From the NCBI GenBank assembly GCA_937952265.1, contig CALFYW010000055.1:149030-213029 (forward strand): a DNA stretch of 64,000 nucleotides. The letters run 5' to 3'. The stretch's first letter is position 1; every line of letters begins with the position of its first letter. A program made the translations under genes and the position numbers. The notes beneath the pieces are model-generated. The model did no database searches and was not told the DNA's origin. It worked only from the letters and a program-made list of their open reading frames with translations. Below, in pieces: positions 5,546 through 48,991 of this stretch. This DNA is from an uncultured bacterium. GTDB taxonomy: Bacteria; Patescibacteriota; Minisyncoccia; Phycocordibacterales; GCA-2401445.

Positions 5546-6535
5546 TTAAGCTAATGTAACCCCAATCTTTTTTCGGATAATAGACATGGTCTTTTCTGCT
5601 TGTATTTGAGCTTTTTGAGCGCCTTTATTGAGTATGTCTTCTACTGCCCTCTTTTCTTTTTCGAGCTCACTTCGGCGCGTTCGAAGCGGAGCAATAAATT
5701 TTTCAATGTGCGCTATAAGCATTTCTTTTGATTCATGGTATCCAATATCCCCTTCTTGGTATCGCTTTCGGAGTTCATCGAGTGTTTCGGGTGGGAGGAA
5801 TAGCTTGTGGAGCGAGAAAATAGTACATGTTTCAGGATCTTTAGGCTCAGTTTTCCCTTTTGAGTCAGTAGGAATACTCATAACACCTTTTTCTATTTCT
5901 TCTGGCGAAGCGAAAAGCGGAATCGTGTTTTGGTAGCTCTTACTCATTTTCCGTCCGTCAGTCCCTGGCACGGTTTTTACGTTATCGAGAATAACTGGCT
6001 CAGGAACTGAGAATGTTTCTCCAAATGTTCGATTAAACTCGAGCGTGGTATTTCGTGCAATCTCGATATGTTGTTTCTGATCGCTTCCCACGGGAACATG
6101 GTCCGCGTTATAAAGCAGAATATCTGCGGCCATCAAAATGGGATAGGTAAACGTGCCGACATTAATCTCCTTATTTTTTTCTTTCGCGTCTTTGTATGCG
6201 TGCGCCCGCATCAAATACGGCATGGTAGTAATACAACTAAAAATCCATGCCAGCTCAGCGTGTTGAGAAACACTCGATTGTTTAAAAATCGTAGCCTGTG
6301 TTGGATCAATGCCGACCGCCAGATAATCGAGAGTGATGTCAATAATATTTTTTCTTAGTTCACTCGGGTCATGGAGGGTGGTGAGGGCATGGTAATCCGC
6401 AATGAAGATAAAAGTCTCGTAGCGTTTTTGAAGGTCCACGAGTTGCTTAATCGCACCAAAATAATTCCCAATATGTATTCGCCCGGTTGGTTTTATACCC
6501 GAAAGAAGCCTTTCCCTTTTCATGCTAAAAAGCAT
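5546..6535 (-). CDS. trpS: Tryptophan--tRNA ligase
   Basis: 329 aa class I synthetase. HIGH-type motif (KPTGRIHIGNY) and KMSKS present. Size and motifs match TrpRS rather than TyrRS. Confidence 0.9.
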   Translation of the reverse strand: MLFSMKRERLLSGIKPTGRIHIGNYFGAIKQLVDLQKRYETFIFIADYHALTTLHDPSELRKNIIDITLDYLAVGIDPTQATIFKQSSVSQHAELAWIFSCITTMPYLMRAHAYKDAKEKNKEINVGTFTYPILMAADILLYNADHVPVGSDQKQHIEIARNTTLEFNRTFGETFSVPEPVILDNVKTVPGTDGRKMSKSYQNTIPLFASPEEIEKGVMSIPTDSKGKTEPKDPETCTIFSLHKLFLPPETLDELRKRYQEGDIGYHESKEMLIAHIEKFIAPLRTRRSELEKEKRAVEDILNKGAQKAQIQAEKTMSIIRKKIGVTLA

Positions 6536-6536
6536 A

Positions 6537-6562
6537 GCAAAATTGGGCTAAAGTGGAAAGTG
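6537..6562. repeat. Copy 1 of a 26-bp perfect direct repeat, caaaattgggctaaagtggaaagtgg, with imperfect extension
   Basis: Identical 26-mer recurs at 9211-9236. Both copies lie in intergenic DNA and flank a 2.7 kb segment. Confidence 0.7.
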
Positions 6563-6739
6563 GGACTGTGGGTGGATTATGGAATTCCTCCATCTGATTA
6601 TAAAATCACAAGGTCGGTCACATCCCTTTTAAGTTTTTCGTGGTGTAATTTAATTTATCTTGGTTTATCATAATTTCGTTATCCGTTTTCTATATTGTGA
6701 GTCTTCCTATCGAATCCCCATCAGTAAGGATGACAGATA

Positions 6740-6776
6740 AGAAGAAAACCACCAGTTCATCGGGTGGTTTTTGTCT
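6740..6776 (-). terminator. Putative bidirectional intrinsic terminator
   Basis: Hairpin aaaccacc-agttcatcg-ggtggttt flanked by an A tract on one side and a T tract on the other. Lies immediately downstream of the minus-strand ORF 6787-7515. Confidence 0.5.
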
Positions 6777-6786
6777 TTTTGAATAT

Positions 6787-7515
6787 TTATAACAAGAAAA
6801 AGGCGATAAATAAAAATATTAAAATGAATGTAACTAATTTTATGAAATTAAACAAACATTGTTTCTTTCTATAAATCATACAGAGCTCATTTCCTTCGCG
6901 AACCATTTTCTGTGTAAATTTACCCTTTTTATTATGAAATATATCAATAAAAGTTTCAAGGAACACGAGCCTTTTTCTGAGGTTATACCGGTGAGAATCA
7001 AGGAATACCAAATCATTTGGAACAATGTCTCTAATCACCAATACGGGCGTTGGTGTCCGAAGGGGATACCAATTCTCATTATGTAAGCTCGGCGCTTGAC
7101 TTGTCGGATAAAGAGCTCCTAACATGAGTGCGTGTTGAACACAGTACTCCTTATTATTGAATTGTAGTTCTAGCAACTTCTCAATATCAAATTGTTTAGG
7201 AAACAGGATAATAATGGCTCCAAAATCGTCATTATCTTTTCGTGAAGAGATATAAAATTCAACACATTCTGTAATCAGTCTTGTACAATCCTGCATCGTG
7301 GCGTCCTCGGCAATTGCGGTAAAAAAGATACGTCGCTTCTTTAATGCCGCATGTACAAAAGGGCAAACTTTTCCTTCCCGAAAAGGATGGTCTGCACAGA
7401 GAAATTGCTGTACATACGGTAACACTTCTTTGTACAATGACGTCACGGAATCAGACGTATATTCCTGACCAAAAGTTTCAACTGTCCAGAAATTTGATAC
7501 TGGATCATGTTTCAT
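6787..7515 (-). CDS. Hypothetical protein, 242 aa, with Cys/His-rich segment CADHPFREGKVCPFVH and a hydrophobic C-terminal tail
   Basis: Long ORF with normal codon usage and a terminator downstream. No family recognised from sequence alone. Lies inside the direct-repeat-flanked segment. Confidence 0.55.
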   Translation of the reverse strand: MKHDPVSNFWTVETFGQEYTSDSVTSLYKEVLPYVQQFLCADHPFREGKVCPFVHAALKKRRIFFTAIAEDATMQDCTRLITECVEFYISSRKDNDDFGAIIILFPKQFDIEKLLELQFNNKEYCVQHALMLGALYPTSQAPSLHNENWYPLRTPTPVLVIRDIVPNDLVFLDSHRYNLRKRLVFLETFIDIFHNKKGKFTQKMVREGNELCMIYRKKQCLFNFIKLVTFILIFLFIAFFLL

Positions 7516-7566
7516 AGTTATCCTTTCTCGTGATATGTTAAAGAGCCGTCTCTTTTTTTGTTAAAA

Positions 7567-7600
7567 TCCCCTGAACATATGCAGGCATATGTTCAGGGGA
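7567..7600. promoter_or_regulatory. Near-perfect 34-bp palindrome (16-nt arms tcccctgaacatatgc/gcatatgttcagggga) in a divergent intergenic region
   Basis: Located between divergent genes 6787-7515 (minus) and 8007-9209 (plus). Dyad symmetry is typical of a dimeric transcription-factor operator; it could also fold as a 14-bp RNA hairpin. Confidence 0.4.
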
Positions 7601-8006
7601 TTAACATGTAAGATTGGTTATTTATATTTAAGTACTATAAGTACTACCATTTCCAACCTACGTTATGTGATTGACCCACGCAGAACCAAGAAAAAAATCG
7701 TTTGAAAAAATTTTTCTTGCGCCAGTATCGGTCGGTAAGAACATCGTCTTGTTTGTGTGGGGTAACAAATATGACAGATTTTGGATCAGCGAATTCTGAT
7801 GGCATTAATTTATCCTCCGGGTTCATATATTTTCGCTCCATCTCGTCTCTCACAGACTACGCATTTACATTATCTGTCTGTAAAGATACCAAACAAAATA
7901 AAGACTTTTTTAAATGCTAATTCTATGATAGACTCTAATCTGTATCCTGTCAATAGAAACATTAGGTACACTTTTTACAGGATCTTTTTATATTTAAAAA
8001 TGTTTT

Positions 8007-9209
8007 ATGACAAATTTGGAAAAAGCAAGACATAATGTTCTGAGAGAAAATCCGGATTTACCCATGACGCTTAGGTTTGAAGTTTCCCCATCGGAAACCG
8101 TTAACAGACTTTTATCAGTTGTGGATCTTACCCTAGATGACGAAATTAATAACAAAGAGAAAAATATAATTGGTCAAATATACAACCAAATTCTTGTAAA
8201 ATTACGAGAATATAGATTTCCTAACATTACAATTATACGCGGAAACCCTATAGTTAGTGTCGAAGATAATTTTGATAACCTTTTGTTTTCTCCCGGAAAT
8301 CCGGGCAGATCATCAACATATACGCGCTATACTGATGAAGATCATGTATTGAGAACTCATACTTCCGCACTTGTGCCGAGTACATTCAGAAAATTGCAAA
8401 ATAAGCAGAACCCAATGACATTTGTTTTTCCGGGGTTAGTGTATAGGCGCGATGTAATAGACCCCAAGCATCTAGACGTGTTTCATCAACTTGATGTATG
8501 GACTTTACAAGAAAATAAAACGTACGGCACCGCTAATAGAAAGGATTTACTAAGATTGGCAAAGGCTATATTTGAAGCCGCTTGTCCGGGCGCCACAATG
8601 ATAGTATATGAAGCACAACACCCGTACACTATTGATGGTATTGAGGTATATGCGGAAGTAGAAGGACAAAAAATAGAAGTTCTTGAAGCGGGGCTTGCTC
8701 ATCCTGGGGTCTTAAAAAAAGCAGGCATTGATCCACAGCAATACTCAGGACTTGCACTCGGTATGGGGATTGAAAGACTAATCATGGCAAGAAAAGTTTT
8801 GCCGGATATTAGGTTAATTCGTTCAGCTGATCCGCGCATTGTTAAACAAATGACCAATATGGAGAAGTTTGTTTCGGTGTCCAATCAGCCAGCTATGACC
8901 AGGGACATGTCTTATTGTGTTGACAGAAATGATACTGAGGAAGATATTTGTGAAGCAATTAAGGATGCATTTGGAGAAAATAGAGACCTTCTAGAGCAAG
9001 TAGAAGTATTAGAAAGAACGCCTTTTCAGGAGTTAAATTCAGCAGCAAGAAACAGGTTAGGAGCAAATGAAAATCAAGATAATATTTTGGTGAGAATCAC
9101 TTTACGTCACCCTGACAAATCACTTACCAAAGAACAGGCTGCGATATTGTATACTGAGGTGTATCCCAAAATCCATCAAGGAACAACGGAAGGATATCGA
9201 GTTAAATAA
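8007..9209 (+). CDS. Monomeric mitochondrial-type phenylalanyl-tRNA synthetase-like protein (PheS-like class II core fused to C-terminal FDX-ACB anticodon-binding domain)
   Basis: Motif 2 (FPGLVYRRDV...FHQLDVW) and motif 3 (GLALGMGIERLIMARKVLPDIRLI) align to PheS of this same window ([43 protein letters not shown]). C-terminal 100 aa (QPAMTRDMSYCV...ILVRITLRHPDKSLTKEQA) parallels the FDX-ACB domain at the PheT C-terminus (YPFVVRDIAIFV...YAFRLIFQDYAKTLSDAEV). The 400-aa length matches FARS2-type monomeric PheRS. Confidence 0.75.
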   Translation: MTNLEKARHNVLRENPDLPMTLRFEVSPSETVNRLLSVVDLTLDDEINNKEKNIIGQIYNQILVKLREYRFPNITIIRGNPIVSVEDNFDNLLFSPGNPGRSSTYTRYTDEDHVLRTHTSALVPSTFRKLQNKQNPMTFVFPGLVYRRDVIDPKHLDVFHQLDVWTLQENKTYGTANRKDLLRLAKAIFEAACPGATMIVYEAQHPYTIDGIEVYAEVEGQKIEVLEAGLAHPGVLKKAGIDPQQYSGLALGMGIERLIMARKVLPDIRLIRSADPRIVKQMTNMEKFVSVSNQPAMTRDMSYCVDRNDTEEDICEAIKDAFGENRDLLEQVEVLERTPFQELNSAARNRLGANENQDNILVRITLRHPDKSLTKEQAAILYTEVYPKIHQGTTEGYRVK

Positions 9210-9210
9210 C

Positions 9211-9236
9211 AAAATTGGGCTAAAGTGGAAAGTGGA
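9211..9236. repeat. Copy 2 of the 26-bp direct repeat caaaattgggctaaagtggaaagtgg
   Basis: Identical to 6537-6562. Lies immediately after the stop of the PheRS-like gene. Confidence 0.7.
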
Positions 9237-9254
9237 GATTGGGAGAGCTTCAAA

Positions 9255-10853
9255 CTACTCTGTCGTTTGGAGTTCTACAATGAAAGAAGAACCTTTCCCT
9301 TCCCCTTCCGATTCAGCCCATACTTTACCTTTATGTGCCTCAACAAGTTGGCGCGCAACATAGAGTCCGAGCCCTGTTCCAAGTACATTTACCTTGTTTG
9401 CGTTATATGCCCTGCTGAATTTTTCAAATAACACGGCAATCGTTTCTTTAGACATGCCAATTCCTGTGTCTTTGATCGTAACACGGATTTTCTGCCCCAT
9501 TCGCTTGATAGTTACTACCACTTCCCCATGAGGAGTGTATTTAATTGCATTATCAATCAGATTACCAATCACTTGCTTCATCTTTCCCATATCAGCATGT
9601 ACAAAAAACCTCGATGCTTCAGGTGGGTTAAAGTAGATTTTAATCCCTGCCCGCTTTGCGGTTGGATCGCTCTCTTTTATCACTTCATCGATAAGCTCTT
9701 TCATATCAAAGCGAGAAAAATGAAATTTCATTGTTCCTTGTTCAATACGAGATACGTCCAAAAAATCATTAACCACAAACGTGAGAGAGTTTGCTGATTG
9801 GAAAATACGATTGATAGCTTCCCGTATTTTTTCTTGAGCTATTTCTCCAAACGAGCCCTCGAGGAGGAGCGAAGAATAGCCCTTGATAGCGGTAAGCGGT
9901 GCCCTAATCTGATGTGTTGCAATGGATATGAATTCTGATTTTTGCTTATCCAATTCCCGCAATTTGCTATTGGTAGTTTTCAAATCATCTGCCAAAGACT
10001 CAATCTTCTCTCTTGAGTCTACTTCTCGATAGACCCCCTTTATGAGTAAATAACTAAAGATTGTGATTGCGATAAGAATCAAAGCCTTTATTAAGATGTT
10101 TGTTGGTGATTCTTCAATAAATATTTCAACAAAAAGTACGGTGATAATAATAATTGAAAAAAGCTCTGTAACAAGAACTTTTATATTAAATAAATGGTAT
10201 TTTAAAATAGCGATAAAAATAGCAGAAACTAGAATTACTGAAAATAGAGGACCAACCCATGTGAATTCAAAAATTTTAAATACTGGCAAAATTAAATTTG
10301 TAAAGAGTGCCAAAGAAGAAGAGATTATTAATCCTATAGAGATTAATCTGATCTGATCTTTTGATTTTTGAGATGCGTTTTCGTGTTGTTTTAAAAGTAG
10401 AAGATAAGCACCAAAGAAATAAAATATTACTAAAAGCTGATACAAGGGATATCCATTTTTTAGTTCATAGGTAGCAGTGGTTGCCTCCATCGGAGGAGCA
10501 ATGATTGAGTCAGTTAGGAATAGGAAAAATAACATTACACAAAATGGTATAAGTACAGAAAAATAAAATAATCTTCCGGAGAATATTTTATTAGGGAAAA
10601 TATTAGAAAATAAGAAAACAATTAATCCTGTAAATAACGCTGTCGAGTGTGTCCATGCCAGCCATTCAATGTCTAAAAGATAGCTTCTAGAGTAAAACCC
10701 TACAATGCTTACACACCAACCAGCCACTCCTAGAGATAAAAAACCGAACAAAATATTGAAAGAATTTCTCAGCCCACGTGAGAGAATGATAACAGAAAGT
10801 ATTATGTTTATAACAACAGTTATAAGTAGTAGTGGTATGATGATTTCTTGCAT
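9255..10853 (-). CDS. Sensor histidine kinase with multi-pass N-terminal membrane domain (HisKA + HATPase_c)
   Basis: At least 8 predicted TM helices, then H-box ATHQIRAPLTAIKGY, N-box and G-boxes (DTGIGM...GTGLGLYVARQLVEAH). No response regulator is adjacent in the window. Confidence 0.9.
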   Translation of the reverse strand: MQEIIIPLLLITVVINIILSVIILSRGLRNSFNILFGFLSLGVAGWCVSIVGFYSRSYLLDIEWLAWTHSTALFTGLIVFLFSNIFPNKIFSGRLFYFSVLIPFCVMLFFLFLTDSIIAPPMEATTATYELKNGYPLYQLLVIFYFFGAYLLLLKQHENASQKSKDQIRLISIGLIISSSLALFTNLILPVFKIFEFTWVGPLFSVILVSAIFIAILKYHLFNIKVLVTELFSIIIITVLFVEIFIEESPTNILIKALILIAITIFSYLLIKGVYREVDSREKIESLADDLKTTNSKLRELDKQKSEFISIATHQIRAPLTAIKGYSSLLLEGSFGEIAQEKIREAINRIFQSANSLTFVVNDFLDVSRIEQGTMKFHFSRFDMKELIDEVIKESDPTAKRAGIKIYFNPPEASRFFVHADMGKMKQVIGNLIDNAIKYTPHGEVVVTIKRMGQKIRVTIKDTGIGMSKETIAVLFEKFSRAYNANKVNVLGTGLGLYVARQLVEAHKGKVWAESEGEGKGSSFIVELQTTE

Positions 10854-10857
10854 AAAA

Positions 10858-11562
10858 TTATTTTAAAGCAGTGTTTAGAACAGCTTGCTTGGCGTAAAGA
10901 TATTCAGGTTTGGAAATCTTCTGAAACCCAGCTGATCTTAAGAGTGACTCTTGTTTTTGCGCACTTAGAAAGGCGTAATTTTTATTCCTGTTTTCTTTTC
11001 TTATAAGATAATTGTAATAAAAAATTCTTATAGTAGGAAGAAGTAGTCGTGTTACCTGAATAATAGTTTTTAGGGTTCCATGTTTTTTTCTCATCTTTTT
11101 TAAATGTTCCAGATATATTTTTTTAGGAGAAAATCCGTCTTGTATATTACTAAGAATGATTTTTCCCTTTGGGCGTAAGATTCTGTAGAATTCCAACAAA
11201 ACCATTTTCTGTTTCTCGGAGGAGATTGTGTAAAGTGTATTGTTTGAAATGATTTTATCAAAAGAATTGTCTTTAAAAGGAAGTCTCTTTGTTAAGTCAC
11301 CTAAAATAATTACTGCTTCAGGGTCTTTTTGTTGGTGTAGACGAGTTCCTTGGGGGGAAAAATCAAAAGAGGTGACTTTTGCACGAGTTTCTCTTAATCT
11401 AACAGAGAGATTCCCTGTTCCTGATCCTGCATCTAAAATAAGTTCTCCTTCTTTTGGATCGGCAACGTTTGTTATTTTTTCTATTAATTCCGAATACGGA
11501 ATAAGATTATTTAATAAATCGTAATCTTGAAAATATTTTTCCCAAAATTTTTCAGTTAACAT
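10858..11562 (-). CDS. Class I SAM-dependent methyltransferase
   Basis: Motif I ILDAGSGTGNLS, acidic motif II and motif III. 234 aa. Confidence 0.85.
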   Translation of the reverse strand: MLTEKFWEKYFQDYDLLNNLIPYSELIEKITNVADPKEGELILDAGSGTGNLSVRLRETRAKVTSFDFSPQGTRLHQQKDPEAVIILGDLTKRLPFKDNSFDKIISNNTLYTISSEKQKMVLLEFYRILRPKGKIILSNIQDGFSPKKIYLEHLKKMRKKHGTLKTIIQVTRLLLPTIRIFYYNYLIRKENRNKNYAFLSAQKQESLLRSAGFQKISKPEYLYAKQAVLNTALK

Positions 11563-11574
11563 AAAAGTTCATCC

Positions 11575-12336
11575 TTACTTAATAACTCCAAGCATTCTTA
11601 AGAAATGGGTATAAGGGTTTGATTTCAATCGAAATTCCCTTCCAGAGTTTTCTTTCTCAAAGATCAACTTATTGTCTGTAACTTTTGATAAATATTTTTT
11701 ATATTCTTGGGTTAGAAAGTAGAATGGGGCGACTGTGTCTGTTGGTTGATAGAAATATTTACTAAGTTTTGCATTTTTGGGATACAAAAGTGCGTAATTA
11801 TTTATAGGATGAAGAGGAAATTTTAACTTTTCCATTTTTGTCTCTAGACTATTTTTTAGAAAGAAATAACCTCCCTGTATATTATTTTCCTCGCTGTATT
11901 TCATCAGAGAATCAAGAATAAATAACATTGTTAAGTTTCGAGGTAGGAATTCACCAATTTCCTCATGTGTGGGTTTTATGACAAACCTACTTAATTCAGC
12001 GATTGACCCACTTTTTTTTAGTTCTTTTATTTGATCCGGTTCGTCAAATTTAAAAAATTTTTCAGTTGGTAATGGGTTTGTTTTAATCAAACGAATTGTT
12101 CCAAAAATTTTTTTATTAACACAGGCTATGAAATAAATACAAGAACCGTCTTCATCAAAAGAGTCTTTCTCAGATTCGTCTGGAAAATCTTTCTGATCAA
12201 TATATTCTTTTTTTAAATAGATTTGATATCTTAACCTATGGACACTTTCCTGCTCTTGTTTTTGGTCTGCTATTCCGAAGGTTAGGATATGCTCTTTGTT
12301 TTTTATTTCTAAGGTTAATGATGTGCTGACTTTCAT
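11575..12336 (-). CDS. GNAT-fold N-acyltransferase of the OlsB / N-acyl amino acid synthase family (lyso-aminolipid synthase candidate)
   Basis: N-terminal pattern LRYQIYLKKEYID...DSFDEDGSCIYFIA...IFGTIRLI...IAELSRFVI matches the Acetyltransf_5/OlsB-FeeM family signature. Adjacent to a PlsC-like O-acyltransferase. Confidence 0.6.
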   Translation of the reverse strand: MKVSTSLTLEIKNKEHILTFGIADQKQEQESVHRLRYQIYLKKEYIDQKDFPDESEKDSFDEDGSCIYFIACVNKKIFGTIRLIKTNPLPTEKFFKFDEPDQIKELKKSGSIAELSRFVIKPTHEEIGEFLPRNLTMLFILDSLMKYSEENNIQGGYFFLKNSLETKMEKLKFPLHPINNYALLYPKNAKLSKYFYQPTDTVAPFYFLTQEYKKYLSKVTDNKLIFEKENSGREFRLKSNPYTHFLRMLGVIK

Positions 12337-12354
12337 CTATATATTTTAGTGTTA

Positions 12355-13035
12355 TTACACAGACTTTGTCTCTTTGAGAGAATAAACCGCGTTCATAATT
12401 TTTTCTGCAATTTTGTGTAGGGCTTCAACGGATTGGTTACTATCTTCAGTGAATTCCATTTTTTTACCAAAAGAAACAATGGTCTTTTTTTTACCAGAAT
12501 TTTTTTCTCTCGTGTGGTGAATGTGAACAGGTATGACAGGTGTCTTTGTGTACGTTGCTAGAAACGCAACACCTCCGTGCACAATGGTTGCCCTTTCTGC
12601 TTCTGGTTTATTAAATTTCCCTTCAGGAAAGATACATAAATTATAACCCAATTTAAGAATTTGAATATGGTCTTGAAGCGACCATTTATAATCTTTCTTT
12701 CCAGGGTGTGTCGCGTATCCGCCAACAACCTCAAAGAATTTTCCACCATAAAAATAAGATCGGATGCCAAATCTTTCTGATGATTGGTAATTTTTTTTCG
12801 GAAGCGCGACAAAATAAAATGGAGAGAAACGAGAAAAGATCGGGAGTGCCGCTCGAATAAGGATCGGGTCAAGTTCAGTCGTATGATTGGCAGCAAAAAT
12901 CGCATTGGACCTCATCTCCGAGAGGTTTTCCATCCCCTTTACTTGAAAGCCTCGAGTAAGTGAGATGACTATTTTAGTGGAGATGAAAAAAAAGGGCTGA
13001 AGGAGTAAAGGCATCCAGTATAAAATTTTTTTCAT
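12355..13035 (-). CDS. Lysophospholipid acyltransferase (PlsC family; OlsA-like O-acyltransferase candidate)
   Basis: HX4D motif (NHTTELDP) and FPEG motif (CIFPEGKF). N-terminal membrane anchor. Confidence 0.75.
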   Translation of the reverse strand: MKKILYWMPLLLQPFFFISTKIVISLTRGFQVKGMENLSEMRSNAIFAANHTTELDPILIRAALPIFSRFSPFYFVALPKKNYQSSERFGIRSYFYGGKFFEVVGGYATHPGKKDYKWSLQDHIQILKLGYNLCIFPEGKFNKPEAERATIVHGGVAFLATYTKTPVIPVHIHHTREKNSGKKKTIVSFGKKMEFTEDSNQSVEALHKIAEKIMNAVYSLKETKSV

Positions 13036-13195
13036 AATGTTACTTTCCTATTTTATACCACGTCTCTCACATCCTGAACAGTTCTGGTGCAATATTTAGA
13101 CACCGGAGGCAACTATTTTTTTAACCATTTTCTTTGGCCATATGAATTTTTTTTACCTCTTGTATATCCCACTGTGTTCATTTTTACCGTATGGT

Positions 13196-13804
13196 TCAAA
13201 TTTTAACACAAATTGGAACTGTTAAATCTTTTGGTGAGACGGGAACTGAAAATAAAACCCTCGTCTTTCTATTTGAAACGTACTCTTTATTTGTTTTCTT
13301 TTTGAAATCTGAACCAGAGACAATATGTATATATCCATCTTTAAATTTCGAAGGACCATTAATAAATCCAAGAGAGATCGAAAGTTTAATTGGTCGAGAT
13401 TTGGGAGTATGCACTGAAGCTCCTCCGGACTCTCGAATATCCAAGATTGCCAGAAAGATTGCGTAATTAGGGTCATCTGTTGCGTATACGAGATTCAGTG
13501 ATTCCTTCTTCCCGTCTTGATCTACGGATGTATTTGGTTCCAACATAGTAAGCATGTTCGTCGATCCGTGAAAGAGGATGGTGCTCGATACAAATTTAGG
13601 TAATATGCAATTGTTTTTTTCGCAAAAAACATAGAATCTCTGAAGATGTCTCTTTTGTTGAATATGGAAAAGAAACTCAACCGTGCTTGAAAGTTTATTT
13701 TGTTTTTTGAAATCCTGTAATAAATTTTTGGAGATTAACGTGTTGTTTTGCATAGAGAATATAATATCAGGAAACGAAGACCCTAAAAAGAGAAGGGAAA
13801 GCAT
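13196..13804 (-). CDS. Hypothetical protein (202 aa)
   Basis: ORF only; no family recognised. Confidence 0.45.
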   Translation of the reverse strand: MLSLLFLGSSFPDIIFSMQNNTLISKNLLQDFKKQNKLSSTVEFLFHIQQKRHLQRFYVFCEKNNCILPKFVSSTILFHGSTNMLTMLEPNTSVDQDGKKESLNLVYATDDPNYAIFLAILDIRESGGASVHTPKSRPIKLSISLGFINGPSKFKDGYIHIVSGSDFKKKTNKEYVSNRKTRVLFSVPVSPKDLTVPICVKI

Positions 13805-46233: not shown

Positions 46234-48180
46234 TTATCGCACCTGCCAACCGCTTATTTCTTCTACTTTCTGGCTTATTTTCCCCATACAATCATTGACT
46301 TCAGCATCAGAAAGTGTCTTCGCGTAATCTTGGAATATAAGGCGAAAAGCATAAGAGACGCGGTCATCCTTTTTGAACGTGTCAAAAATATAGAGCTTCT
46401 GAAGCCGCACCCCGGCATGCTCCATGATGAGTTTGGAAACATGAGAGGAGGTTACTTCTTCTGGTACAAAGATAGCGATATCGCGAACCACAAACGGATA
46501 TACTGAAGGCTTGCGATAGACTACCCCCTCTTTTCCTGCCGGGAGCATACTGAGTAATTGATCGGGCGACTCTTCCAACTGTAGAGGAGCCTCTTTCGGT
46601 GCCTCCGTAAGCGAAAACTTATAGATGAGAATGCCATCCTTCACGGTGCTCTCTTTTTCAATTGGAGGTAATACCATTGAAAATGTATTTTCGATCGCGC
46701 CCCGAACTTGGTGAAGAATACTATCCGTATTGAGTTTATTATTTTTTATTCCCGATATCGCAAGCGCAACCGATGTATGTTCTCCTTCTTTTGGGAATAC
46801 CGTTCCAATCTCGAAAGCGTGTATCGCTTCCACGCCAAGAAGATCCTGATTGTGCACGTTCCGAACCATCGCCTCAAAGAGGGTGTCTTTAAGCGAAGCG
46901 CGTAGAAAGGCTCGGTCCTTTGCGATTGGGTTTAATAATTTCTGCACCCCTTCTGGAGCAAATGAGCTTGTGTAAAGCTCAGAAAATCCTTGTTGGATAA
47001 GAAAAACTTTTAAACGATTCTCATAGGAAAAATGAAAATCGAGTGGCATATCTCCTTTTTCTTTTTTAGGAAGCACTCCTTTCACATGCTCGTATCCATA
47101 GATACGCCCAACTTCATCTATAATATCTTCGGCGATCACAACATCAGCCCGTTCTGGAGGAGGGTTACTCACCACAAAACCATTATCAATGCGCGGTTCC
47201 ATCTCTAATTGAGTTAGAATTCCGAGAATTTCTTCTTCACGAAGCGAAATACCGAGCACCTCTTCAAAGAGAGTAAGTGAAGTTTTTACGCTGACCTGGG
47301 AAGGTTTTGAAGGAAACCAGTCATATCGAGATCCAAAACGCGCGTCAGGAAAAAAGTGGTGTATATATGAGATGAACTGATCAATACCTTTCTCCGCGCG
47401 AAACGGATTAACCTTGTTTTCAAAACGTTTTGCCGCGTCACTTAAAAGATTCAATCGGCGCGCTGTCTTTCTAATAGCCACTGAATCAAAATTTGCAGAT
47501 TCAATAATCACCGCATTTGTCGATGACGTAACTGCCGCACGTGCTCCTCCTTTAATCCCCGCAATGGCGAGTACTCCTTTTTTATCAGCAATCACTACAT
47601 CACTCTCTCCGAGCTCTCTTGGGCTTTCTTCACCAATTAGTAGAACTTCTTCCCCGTGAGAGGCAAAACGAATTACCAACTCACCATCCACCTTATCCGC
47701 GTCAAAGACATGGAGCGGTTGCCCCATATCAAACATGATGTAATTCGCCATATCAACTAAGGGATGAATTGATCGCTCATTGATACTCTGAAGCCTCTGC
47801 AGTATTTCAGTAAGGTCTGCTTTTAAAGGGAGCGCTATTCCTTCGACACGCTGAGCAATATAGCGCGTGGCCGGCACCCCATCCCGAACTGAAACCCGGA
47901 CTTCAGAAACCTCGTGGCTAATTGTTGGGGTTTTTAAAACACGCTCATGATAGGGAGTATTAAAGATTGCGTGAAGTTCATACGCGACGCCTTTATGGCA
48001 CAGCGCGTAGGAAGCACGGTCCGGAAGAATAGAGATATCAAAAATAGTATCTGTTTCTCCTTTTCTCACTTTTTCAATTTCAAAAGATCGGCGATTGAGA
48101 AAATCCGCAACCTCTTCTGCCTTGGGTAAAGGTTCTTTAAAAAATGAAGAAAGCCATTGATATGAATACGATGCCAGCAT
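46234..48180 (-). CDS. pheT: Phenylalanine--tRNA ligase beta subunit (short form)
   Basis: B3/B4 and B5 domains and C-terminal FDX-ACB domain. Translationally coupled downstream of pheS. Confidence 0.9.
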   Translation of the reverse strand: MLASYSYQWLSSFFKEPLPKAEEVADFLNRRSFEIEKVRKGETDTIFDISILPDRASYALCHKGVAYELHAIFNTPYHERVLKTPTISHEVSEVRVSVRDGVPATRYIAQRVEGIALPLKADLTEILQRLQSINERSIHPLVDMANYIMFDMGQPLHVFDADKVDGELVIRFASHGEEVLLIGEESPRELGESDVVIADKKGVLAIAGIKGGARAAVTSSTNAVIIESANFDSVAIRKTARRLNLLSDAAKRFENKVNPFRAEKGIDQFISYIHHFFPDARFGSRYDWFPSKPSQVSVKTSLTLFEEVLGISLREEEILGILTQLEMEPRIDNGFVVSNPPPERADVVIAEDIIDEVGRIYGYEHVKGVLPKKEKGDMPLDFHFSYENRLKVFLIQQGFSELYTSSFAPEGVQKLLNPIAKDRAFLRASLKDTLFEAMVRNVHNQDLLGVEAIHAFEIGTVFPKEGEHTSVALAISGIKNNKLNTDSILHQVRGAIENTFSMVLPPIEKESTVKDGILIYKFSLTEAPKEAPLQLEESPDQLLSMLPAGKEGVVYRKPSVYPFVVRDIAIFVPEEVTSSHVSKLIMEHAGVRLQKLYIFDTFKKDDRVSYAFRLIFQDYAKTLSDAEVNDCMGKISQKVEEISGWQVR

Positions 48181-48181
48181 A

Positions 48182-48874
48182 TTAAAATTGAGTTACGAGG
48201 CGGAGGTCTCCATTGTAGAATGCCCGAATATCATCGACGCCATACTTAAGCATGGTAAGCCGGTCGATACCGACTCCAAAGGCAAAACCTCTCCACGTAC
48301 CTGGATCAATACCCGCATTTTTTAATACTTGAGGGTGCACCATGCCCGCGCCAAGCACTTCAATCCATGGGCCACCATCACGCGAGACATCGATTTCTAC
48401 CCCCGGCTCAACGAAAGAAAAATAGCTTGGACGAAGGCGTAACGTAATATCAGTATCAAAAAACACACGCATAAAATACTCCAGAGTTCCGATAAGTTGA
48501 GGGAGTGAGGCGTCCTTACTAACTACCAACCCTTCAACTTGATGGAACTGCGCTTCGTGCGTACGGTCACTTGCCTCTTGTCGAAAAACTTTTCCAGGTG
48601 CAATAATTCGAAATGGCGGTTTATGTTTTTCCATAAAATGCATCTGCACCGAGGAAGTATGCGTGCGAAGTAGTTTTTCAGGCCCAAGCCAAAAAGTATC
48701 TTGAAGATCACGAGCCGGATGGTCCTTCGGAATATTGAGCGCGTCAAAGTTGTAGTACGGGGTTTCAAGCTCCGGACCGCGGGCAACACCAAATCCATGT
48801 TCATGGAAAATACGATACACATCAAAAATAACCTGGGTAATTGGATGAAGGTGCCCTTGTTCTTTACTCGCCAT
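48182..48874 (-). CDS. pheS: Phenylalanine--tRNA ligase alpha subunit (catalytic core only, no N-terminal coiled-coil)
   Basis: Class II motifs FRQEASDRTHEAQFHQVEG and GFAFGVGIDRLTMLKYGVDDIRAF. 230 aa. Confidence 0.9.
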   Translation of the reverse strand: MASKEQGHLHPITQVIFDVYRIFHEHGFGVARGPELETPYYNFDALNIPKDHPARDLQDTFWLGPEKLLRTHTSSVQMHFMEKHKPPFRIIAPGKVFRQEASDRTHEAQFHQVEGLVVSKDASLPQLIGTLEYFMRVFFDTDITLRLRPSYFSFVEPGVEIDVSRDGGPWIEVLGAGMVHPQVLKNAGIDPGTWRGFAFGVGIDRLTMLKYGVDDIRAFYNGDLRLVTQF

Positions 48875-48918
48875 GTAGGGGATTATATCAAAAAGTCTTG
48901 TCTCACCGAAATCTCTAG

Positions 48919-48991
48919 AGCCACCTGTCAGGCTTGAACTGACGACCTACGGTTTACAAAACCGTTGCTCTACCAACTGAGCTAAGGTGGC
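48919..48991 (-). tRNA. tRNA-Thr (anticodon UGU); CCA not encoded
   Basis: Minus-strand GCCACCTTAGCTCAGTTGGTAGAGCAACGGTTTTGTAAACCGTAGGTCGTCAGTTCAAGCCTGACAGGTGGCT. 7-bp acceptor stem, D arm, anticodon loop TTTGTAA, TTCAAGC T-loop. Confidence 0.85.

Follow-up and report, generated by a model that had tools for sequence, protein, structure and literature searches.

SrmL, a predicted single-chain ligase derived from phenylalanyl-tRNA synthetase, with replaced specificity residues in a genome of the candidate phyla radiation

The SrmL gene and its family

The DNA considered here is a stretch of 64,000 nucleotides (hereafter the window) from an uncultured bacterium of the candidate phyla radiation (CPR), which carries on its forward strand, at 8007-9209, a gene of the family named 'PheS-related mystery ligase SrmL' in NCBIfam. 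The gene opens with an ATG codon and encodes 400 amino acids, predicted to form a single-chain ligase of class IIc derived from phenylalanyl-tRNA synthetase (PheRS). The start of this open reading frame (ORF) is supported by 120 homologues, among which the N-terminus is conserved from residue 2 onwards. Residues 1-50 (8007-8156, +) make up an N-terminal extension, delimited by the conservation profile, the alignments and an AlphaFold2 model, in which it comprises a pair of short helices and, at residues 46-49, a disordered loop. This extension is conserved in CPR proteins of the form that we term SrmL-A, and absent from Actinomycetota SrmL proteins of about 370 amino acids and from a second form, SrmL-B. 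A class II catalytic core follows at residues 53-285 (8163-8861, +), recognised both by the Pfam model PF01409 (residues 41-282, 131 bits, E 6e-38) and by a BLAST alignment with the PheS encoded elsewhere in the window, which extends over the full length of PheS at 29% identity (E 2e-26), includes motifs 2 and 3 and represents a similarity far above chance.

The C-terminal domain (residues 292-392; 8880-9182, +) is a modified version of the FDX-ACB domain that ends PheT. Its match to the Pfam model PF03147 (residues 292-389, 29.7 bits, E 8.9e-7) narrowly misses the gathering score of 31.1, and a precomputed PF03147 match is present in most members of the family. BLAST detected no significant similarity between the C-terminal part of SrmL and the PheT of the window, and hhalign gave a probability of 0.2% when a low-diversity CPR alignment was compared with PheT. 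A profile of 44 diverse SrmL members, however, aligned with residues 555-646 of PheT, its FDX-ACB domain, with a probability of 86% (E 4.8e-6), such that the homology of the two domains, visible with the diverse alignment only, is indicated at the level of profiles. The AlphaFold2 model, built with 65 homologues, is of high quality (predicted local distance difference test score 89.6, predicted template modelling score 0.86) and gives the C-domain a ferredoxin-like beta-alpha-beta-(alpha)-beta-alpha topology. Among solved structures, Foldseek ranks human mitochondrial PheRS highest, matched over its full length (3cmq and 5mgh; template modelling scores 0.67-0.69 over 382-407 aligned columns), to the C-domain of which that of SrmL is aligned, whereas bacterial PheS chains match in the core alone. 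The first-pass annotation had described a 400-residue protein that joins a PheS-like core, alignable with PheS through motifs 2 and 3, to an FDX-ACB domain in the layout of the mitochondrial enzyme FARS2, and this description is borne out throughout.

It had also presented the gene as an addition to a canonical pheS/pheT pair, and both genes are indeed present on the reverse strand. The pheS gene (48182-48874, -) encodes 230 amino acids that score 291.5 bits against TIGR00468 (cut-off 237), with a match from profile position 67, and pheT (46234-48180, -) encodes 648 amino acids with a B3/4 editing domain, a B5 domain, a catalytic-like module and a canonical FDX-ACB domain with all of the canonical contacts in place (RDIA, FDTF and the terminal QVR). 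This PheS is devoid of the N-terminal coiled-coil arm, for which a tRNA-Thr gene directly upstream (48918-48991) leaves no space, and PheT is matched by the NCBIfam pheT model from profile position 158 on, with a score of 344 that is below the cut-off of 403. Canonical PheRS and SrmL thus coexist in the genome of the window, the sole genome in which coexistence could be checked.

Family assignment is unambiguous. The NCBIfam equivalog model NF051887, which supplies the RefSeq product name of proteins from Kocuria sabuli, Microbacterium sp. and others, matches the window protein at profile positions 12-349 of 349 with 377.1 bits (E 8e-113), passing the cut-off of 300. Scores against the models for mitochondrial PheRS (TIGR00469, 123.7 bits, cut-off 258.35) and PheS (TIGR00468, 107 bits, cut-off 237.45) are both far below threshold, and no match to a PylS or SepS model was found among NCBIfam hits at E <= 0.01. 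All elements of the SrmL signature (YTRY, HQxDxW, HPYT..G, LE[AC]G and a C-domain insertion with A..RLG) are present in the window protein, each of their residues being conserved in at least 80% or at least 50% of 48 SrmL clusters. The profile searches proposed in the first-pass annotation consequently yield a mixed outcome: the PheS-type core stood, the C-domain match fell just under the gathering score, PylS and SepRS models gave nothing, and the protein was placed in the SrmL family instead of among the mitochondrial-type PheRS that had been suggested.

Nor is the gene an oddity of this bacterium, as had been supposed, since it belongs to a large family curated by NCBI. At E <= 1e-5 we recovered 1431 relatives, and the best 120 of these are all about 400 amino acids long, share 65-73% identity with the window protein and belong to Nomurabacteria, Jorgensenbacteria, Minisyncoccia, Paceibacterota and other Patescibacteria; identities this high between members of different CPR classes indicate strong purifying selection. 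An exhaustive search of 1.8 billion cluster representatives returned 94 clusters at E <= 1e-30, many of them of 365-420 amino acids at 30-45% identity, and a profile search with these clusters reached the SrmL-named RefSeq proteins of Kocuria sabuli and Microbacterium. Labedella, Kocuria aegyptia and metagenome-assembled genomes of Longimicrobium and Kofleriaceae also carry the family. SrmL is therefore nearly universal in some parts of the CPR, and its occurrence in Actinomycetota and other phyla is sporadic. A sequence labelled Bacillus subtilis (L044, CP123773.1) has, next to genes for TrwC-type relaxases, a copy whose product closely resembles the proteins of Microbacterium and Kocuria; this copy either belongs to a mobile element or reflects a mislabelled genome.

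Some CPR genomes encode two paralogous types, A (about 400 amino acids, like that of the window) and B (about 370 amino acids), both of which pass the NF051887 cut-off. The paired genes lie close together, at 1504-2616 and 7944-9203 in locus L026, 197-1312 and 7773-9008 in L079, and 6015-7235 and 8809-9924 in L009. Type B carries R-V-L-S in place of the R-D-M-S of the C-domain, and proline in place of the phenylalanine that stacks on adenine. A 370-residue PF01409 gene beside a cluster for a pyridoxal phosphate (PLP)-dependent enzyme, which we had considered as a canonical pheS, proved to be such a second SrmL paralogue. The name SrmL is absent from a collection of 8 million papers and preprints, in which no publication on a monomeric CPR PheRS was found either; the family is catalogued by NCBI and otherwise uncharacterised, and the window protein is one of its CPR-type members.

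Catalytic residues and specificity surfaces

Residue roles were taken from published PheRS structures (PMC3275996, PMC8136816) and mapped by aligning SrmL with E. coli PheS and human mitochondrial PheRS in HMMER. Motif 2 (PGLVYRRDVIDPKHLDVFHQLDVWTLQ; 8430-8510, +) keeps Arg147, Asp149, Phe159 and Gln161, and the PheRS sequence 'E-G-L' that follows becomes D163-V164-W165, with Asp163 as the acidic residue for the alpha-amino group. Glu224 is kept in the strand EVLEAGLAHP (8676-8705, +), as are Ala250 (Ala294 in E. coli) and Arg257 in motif 3 (GLALGMGIERL; 8748-8780, +); Thr208 and Ala250, at the end of the pocket, equal E. coli Thr251 and Ala294. Among 65 CPR members, Arg147, Asp149, Phe159, His160, Gln161, Asp163, Glu224 and Arg257 are all invariant, together with the motif 3 pattern G-x-A-x-G-x-G-x-E-R and H118-T-S. 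By its residues, SrmL would accordingly possess a competent class II core, comprising the arginine and aspartate of motif 2, the adenine-stacking phenylalanine, glutamine and an acidic residue to bind the alpha-amino group, the Mg-binding glutamate and the arginine of motif 3. The set that binds ATP and Mg is retained, and the adenylation machinery appears intact, in agreement with the catalytic potential anticipated in the first-pass annotation. A dead paralogue is unlikely, given that the adenylate-forming residues are all present and invariant in CPR members. Most SrmL members from outside the CPR have proline in place of Phe159.

The sites that determine specificity present a different picture. 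We compared 48 SrmL clusters (at 50% identity) with 17 clusters of mitochondrial-type PheRS retrieved by the same search, the latter including the locust mitochondrial enzyme and an Oligoflexia protein. The 17 clusters leave the specificity sites unchanged, keeping F-P-[FY]-T, a glycine floor, the HP[AS]R..DT[FY][YW] gate and the D-x-[FY] that reads G34, whereas the SrmL clusters have a different conserved set at the same positions. In the wall of the side-chain pocket (HPYTIDG; 8619-8639, +), where PheRS has F-P-F-[TV]-E-P-S (Phe258, Phe260 and Val261 of Thermus thermophilus), the F-P-[FY]-T..S of true PheRS is replaced by H205-P-Y207-T208..G211. After the acidic residue for the alpha-amino group, the G-L of true PheRS becomes V164-W165. 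In the floor strand, L-G-A-G becomes L-E227-[AC]-G, the position being glutamate in 80% or more of the SrmL clusters and glycine in every type of PheRS. The 'invariant glycines' form the floor of the phenylalanine pocket (PMC3275996); in the ungapped alignment to the PheS of the window, Glu227 takes the place of a glycine that is probably one of these. The pocket check proposed in the first-pass annotation, a comparison with FARS2, hence reveals H-P-Y-T, L-E-A-G and Trp165 instead of F-P-[FY]-T and a glycine floor. Asp163 and Tyr207 also occur in genuine mitochondrial-type PheRS, and cytosolic PheRS has asparagine and tyrosine at the two phenylalanine positions of the pocket (PMC3275996), so that the pocket changes specific to SrmL are His205, Trp165, Gly211 and Glu227.

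The gate that receives the tRNA 3' end (SPGNPGRSSTYTRY; 8289-8330, +) has been remodelled as well. PheS and mitochondrial-type PheRS share HP[AS]R..QDT[FY][WY] at this position, and the HP[AS]R...DT[FY][YW] of true PheRS corresponds to ....R...Y-T-R107-Y in SrmL; in the window protein, HPAR..QDTF has given way to NPGR..TYTR, with loss of the histidine and gain of an arginine. In Mycobacterium tuberculosis PheRS, alpha-His152, Gln158 and Asp159 of this gate hold A76 (PMC8136816).

A similar combination of retention and loss is observed in the C-domain. The R-D-x-[SA] with which true PheRS contacts A35 and A36 is kept (R299-D300-x-S302). G34 is read by D-x-[FY] and a terminal arginine in the Thermus and M. 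tuberculosis enzymes (contact residues after PMC8136816), and of the residues that stack on and read this base, D-x-[FY], S-x-[AT] and the C-terminal arginine are all lost: D-x-[FY] is replaced by E336-R337-T338, and the window protein ends in EGYRVK, without the conserved arginine, where the family consensus has glutamate. SrmL also carries an insertion of about 14 residues that true PheRS has not (FQELNSAARNRLGANEN; 9024-9074, +), which contains the conserved family motif 'A..RLG', appears as a 14-column gap in the hhalign alignment with PheT and includes a helix at residues 345-351 in the AlphaFold2 model. The ferredoxin-fold domain is nonetheless a family-wide feature, still present at 30% identity together with R-D-x-S and a number of conserved arginines.

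Genes around SrmL

Divergently from SrmL, and between it and trpS, lies a gene for a cytochrome P422 (DUF6875; 6787-7515, -), identified by PF21780 with 109 bits. Its product has the haem motif REGKVCP and recognisable substrate motifs (RDIVPNDLVF, QFNNK and MLGAL). DUF6875 proteins were recently renamed cytochrome P422, a group of haem enzymes with a thiolate ligand that act on free L-tryptophan, either by hydroxylation at N1, C6 or C7 or by formation of a C-S bond; tRNA and synthetases go unmentioned in that preprint (bioRxiv 10.64898/2025.12.11.692455). The window P422 has a predicted C-terminal membrane helix, and the occurrence of a P422 in a CPR genome is unusual. P422 genes, with products at 27-30% identity, stand directly beside SrmL in three loci, the window, L036 and L083, where gene orientations differ; the SrmL proteins of the latter two share 56-58% identity with that of the window. 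Just beyond the P422 gene, trpS (5546-6535, -) encodes a canonical tryptophanyl-tRNA synthetase (TIGR00233, 315 bits, cut-off 177).

The 491-bp divergent intergenic region between P422 and SrmL (7516-8006) contains promoter-like sites only. Neither a T-box nor any other leader RNA reached the Rfam gathering score in this region or upstream of SrmL in seven other loci, and relaxing the threshold to E < 5 on the same upstream regions yielded meaningless matches to microRNA (miRNA) models only. A perfect 14-bp inverted repeat with a 4-nt loop lies at 7568-7599 (CCCCTGAACATATG-CAGG-CATATGTTCAGGGG); it too gave spurious miRNA-model matches only, and it is not a standard terminator, since no T-run follows it. 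Downstream of SrmL, a block of four genes at 9255-13035 (-) has a low GC content (31-38%, against a window mean of 42.4%) and encodes a membrane histidine kinase, a class I methyltransferase, an OlsB/FeeM-like N-acyl amino acid synthase and a PlsC-like acyltransferase, which looks like a cassette for aminolipid (ornithine-lipid-type) biosynthesis. We rejected its OlsB/FeeM-like, PlsC-like and methyltransferase genes as partners of SrmL, as this gene set was seen in this genome only. More broadly, the region 6800-13800, from the P422 gene to an ORF at 13196-13804 and with SrmL itself at 38.7% GC, lies below the flanking housekeeping genes (44-47% GC), and could be a laterally acquired or less constrained block.

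To place these neighbours in context, 92 further SrmL loci were collected from genomes and metagenomes and their neighbouring ORFs clustered. Synteny around SrmL is poor overall, as for many housekeeping genes, with one standout neighbour: a 538-residue PLP-dependent protein with the fold of group II decarboxylases and weak matches to tyrosine, diaminobutyrate and aspartate decarboxylases. When SrmL-A loci were collapsed at 90% identity into 57 non-redundant groups, the gene for this protein lay within 10 kb of SrmL-A in 14 (25%) of them, in at least six gene orders, and in 8 of the 26 groups that have 4 kb or more of flanking sequence on each side. Its frequent companions are genes for kinase-like, Gfo/Idh/MocA oxidoreductase and RibA-like proteins, a HisC-like aminotransferase and IlvE. 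At L089 (4654-11125), for example, RibA-like, Gfo/Idh/MocA, kinase-like, PLP (8177-9799) and SrmL genes form a tight, same-strand array of five, and in L026 and L079 the A and B paralogues flank a cluster of PLP, kinase, oxidoreductase and RibA-like genes. A Pfam census of 149 neighbours within two genes of SrmL on either side recorded Pyridoxal_deC eight times, Aminotran_1_2 seven, GFO_IDH_MocA and HATPase_c five each, APH, NUDIX and PP-loop four each and DUF6875 three; the neighbourhood of SrmL is thus enriched in enzymes that transform amino acids. The PP-loop proteins include a divergent ATPase of about 400 amino acids, with an SGGxDS motif and weak similarity to TilS, TtcA and NadE, which is encoded directly beside SrmL in several loci (6812-7984 in L019, 7777-8973 in L031 and 9245-10492 in L037).

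The PLP family itself is specific to CPR and DPANN genomes, in which it has 253 members, with lengths of 520-580 amino acids, and we looked up six distinct contigs of these as a reciprocal test. In five of the six, a gene for an aromatic-type aminoacyl-tRNA synthetase (aaRS) lies within two genes of the PLP gene: SrmL, one gene away, in L102; a mitochondrial-like PheRS directly upstream in L100; canonical pheS-pheT at the same position in L101; and an adjacent tyrosyl-tRNA synthetase (TyrRS) in both L104 and L105. L103 has only a radical S-adenosylmethionine (SAM)/SPASM gene, and such a gene adjoins the PLP gene in three contigs. That the PLP enzyme stands beside synthetases of the phenylalanine and tyrosine type generally places SrmL in an aromatic amino-acid setting; the linkage alone does not prove a small-molecule pathway for SrmL. 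The L100 protein (7802-8962) is a 386-residue monomeric PheRS with a canonical pocket and G34 readers that scores 243.7 bits against TIGR00469. It is encoded on a Moranbacteria contig, upstream of PLP and radical SAM/SPASM genes, in the position that pheS-pheT occupies in the related L101 (5950-8995), which looks like displacement of a heterotetrameric PheRS by a monomeric one in a bacterium.

Substrate, acceptor and comparison with known systems

We put the chances at about even that SrmL is an active ligase for an amino acid other than phenylalanine, probably a polar aromatic one, which acts beside PheRS and has a differently read RNA as its most likely acceptor; its enzymatic activity, the class of its substrate and the nature of its acceptor are what we infer from the residues and neighbours described above. 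On this account, SrmL would bind ATP and an amino acid to form an aminoacyl-adenylate, and the aminoacyl group would then pass to an acceptor that the remodelled C-terminal domain helps to hold. Plain phenylalanine is probably not the amino acid used, our best guess being a polar, possibly hydroxylated aromatic amino acid of a kind that may be made or handled by the recurrent neighbours (P422, the PLP decarboxylase-like enzyme and the aminotransferases). Such a substrate is suggested by the recurrent pairing with P422 in combination with the acidic, hydrogen-bonding pocket. The acceptor would most likely be an RNA or tRNA, read otherwise than tRNA-Phe(GAA), and SrmL would work alongside canonical PheS/PheT with no replacement of them. 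The suggestion in the first-pass annotation of a different substrate, or of an aminoacyl donor for other chemistry, fits this evidence.

Several considerations pull in the opposite direction. The substitutions shared with cytosolic and mitochondrial-type PheRS, noted above, show that part of the pocket change is tolerated in some true PheRS, and phenylalanine is for this reason a possible substrate. That Glu227 and Trp165 face the pocket is inferred from the alignment and the register of the strand, and the altered 3'-end gate could mean that the acceptor is not a tRNA. The literature yielded no biochemical data on any SrmL member. The PLP, kinase and oxidoreductase genes that recur beside SrmL elsewhere are all absent from the 64-kb window; in cultured Actinomycetota we found no conserved partner, SrmL standing alone among unrelated genes; and ARAGORN detected no dedicated or unusual tRNA gene consistently near SrmL in the window and 41 loci, where tRNA-Phe adjoins SrmL in L038 only and tRNA-Ala in L007 and L040.

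One alternative is that SrmL is a genuine second PheRS, monomeric and without an editing domain, that charges tRNA-Phe with phenylalanine; it might be a spare enzyme, resistant to a PheRS inhibitor or to a toxic analogue, or one for use under special conditions. Its architecture and fold are those of mitochondrial PheRS, its adenylation residues are all kept, Thr208 and Ala250 at the end of the pocket equal their E. coli counterparts, polar substitutions at the two phenylalanine positions are known from cytosolic PheRS (PMC3275996) and the R-D-x-S that contacts A35 and A36 remains. A sporadic distribution in Actinomycetota like that of resistance-type aaRS paralogues, a canonical PheS without its coiled coil in the window and the tRNA-Phe gene of L038 may be added to these. 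However, SrmL widely misses both TIGR00469 (124 against 258 bits) and TIGR00468 (107 against 237), and true monomeric bacterial PheRS (L100 7802-8962 and the Oligoflexia proteins P0209 and P0193) keep the pocket, the gate and the G34 readers, all three of which SrmL changes. Moreover, a glutamate on the pocket floor is hard to square with a phenyl ring, some genomes have two SrmL paralogues, and canonical PheRS is also present in the one genome that could be checked. SrmL is probably not a spare PheRS, and the reading of it as a second one, raised in the first-pass annotation, is rendered rather unlikely by its family membership and by the replacement of specificity sites that true mitochondrial-type PheRS keep.

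Similarly doubtful is a tRNA-independent ligase, the adenylate of which would acylate a small molecule or a protein, with a repurposed C-domain and with the PLP, kinase, Gfo/Idh/MocA and aminotransferase cluster as partners. Remodelling of both tRNA-contact surfaces (the 3'-end gate and the G34 readers), the proline that takes the place of Phe159 in most non-CPR members, operon-like linkage to small-molecule enzymes as in L089 (4654-11125), the two paralogues that flank the PLP cluster in L026 and L079 and the recurrent PP-loop ATPase would all agree with this. Set against them are the ferredoxin-fold domain, kept family-wide with conserved arginines and R-D-x-S, and a motif 2 loop like that of mitochondrial PheRS; the PLP family is also found beside ordinary pheST and TyrRS genes, such that its linkage is no sign of a small-molecule acceptor, and most SrmL genes, that of the window included, lie outside the PLP cluster. 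We regard as very improbable a non-catalytic paralogue that serves as a regulatory or structural subunit in the manner of HisZ or the catalytic-like module of PheT: aaRS paralogues offer precedents, and non-CPR members are devoid of the adenine-stacking phenylalanine, but the residues that bind ATP, Mg and the alpha-amino group are all invariant in CPR members, and the pocket residues are under strong family-wide conservation, as for an enzyme that binds a substrate.

A bolder version of the non-phenylalanine ligase, and one that we hold to be distinctly unlikely, is that SrmL represents a fourth specificity on the PheRS scaffold, after PheRS, PylRS and SepRS, which joins a non-canonical polar aromatic amino acid to a newly read RNA or tRNA. 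Its substrate may be hydroxylated tryptophan from the adjacent P422, or a compound produced by the PLP, aminotransferase and kinase enzymes to which its gene is linked. If true, this would imply a new aminoacyl-RNA-dependent pathway in CPR and some Actinomycetota, serving translation, a metabolite or a component of the cell envelope, and SrmL, should its substrate prove to be new, would offer a natural orthogonal ligase, relevant to genetic-code expansion as well as to CPR physiology. Reduced CPR genomes rarely retain dispensable genes, and SrmL is a large, strongly conserved family, flagged as a mystery by its curators and especially common in these genomes. The problem that it poses is now narrower: adenylation appears intact, the pocket, 3'-end gate and anticodon surface appear to have been re-specified family-wide, and the gene travels with aromatic amino-acid enzymes, P422 among them. 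These results give concrete substrate panels as well as cultured hosts (Kocuria and Microbacterium).

Among known systems, mitochondrial PheRS (FARS2; TIGR00469; PDB 3CMQ, 3TUP) is the closest in architecture, with the same single chain of class IIc core and C-terminal FDX-ACB domain, and it shares with SrmL a 'YRRDxID' motif 2 loop that exceeds the loop of bacterial PheS by one residue. We rejected this longer loop as proof of common descent, since it may be ancestral; cytosolic and archaeal PheS have a motif 2 loop of the same length. SrmL differs from the mitochondrial enzyme in having His205, Trp165 and Glu227 for phenylalanine, leucine and glycine, in its replaced gate and G34 readers and in the 14-residue C-domain insertion, and bacteria also possess mitochondrial-type look-alikes (L100 7802-8962 and Oligoflexia MBX7144632). 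With respect to bacterial PheS/PheT (TIGR00468, TIGR00472), SrmL is homologous to the whole PheS core and the last PheT domain, is devoid of the B3/4 editing domain, the B5 domain, the catalytic-like module and the N-terminal coiled coil, and has changed specificity residues. Within NF051887 generally, the CPR 'A' form has about 30 additional residues at its N-terminus and keeps Phe159 where most members have proline.

PylRS and SepRS, class IIc enzymes that arose from the PheRS lineage and became specific for other amino acids and tRNAs, provide a precedent for a PheRS-type core that gains a new pocket and a new way of reading tRNA, with the differences that SrmL matches neither the PylS nor the SepS model and that no dedicated tRNA was found near it in the window and 41 loci. 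Indeed, paralogues of aaRS have repeatedly been found to perform unexpected chemistry, including the insertion of pyrrolysine and phosphoserine, the modification of elongation factor P and the synthesis of mycothiol. MshC, EpmA/PoxA and AsnA, which derive from the cysteinyl-, lysyl- and aspartyl-tRNA synthetases respectively, are stand-alone adenylate-forming ligases with non-tRNA acceptors, some of them linked to small-molecule biosynthetic genes; SrmL resembles these in standing alone and in its altered acceptor sites, but springs from another aaRS family.

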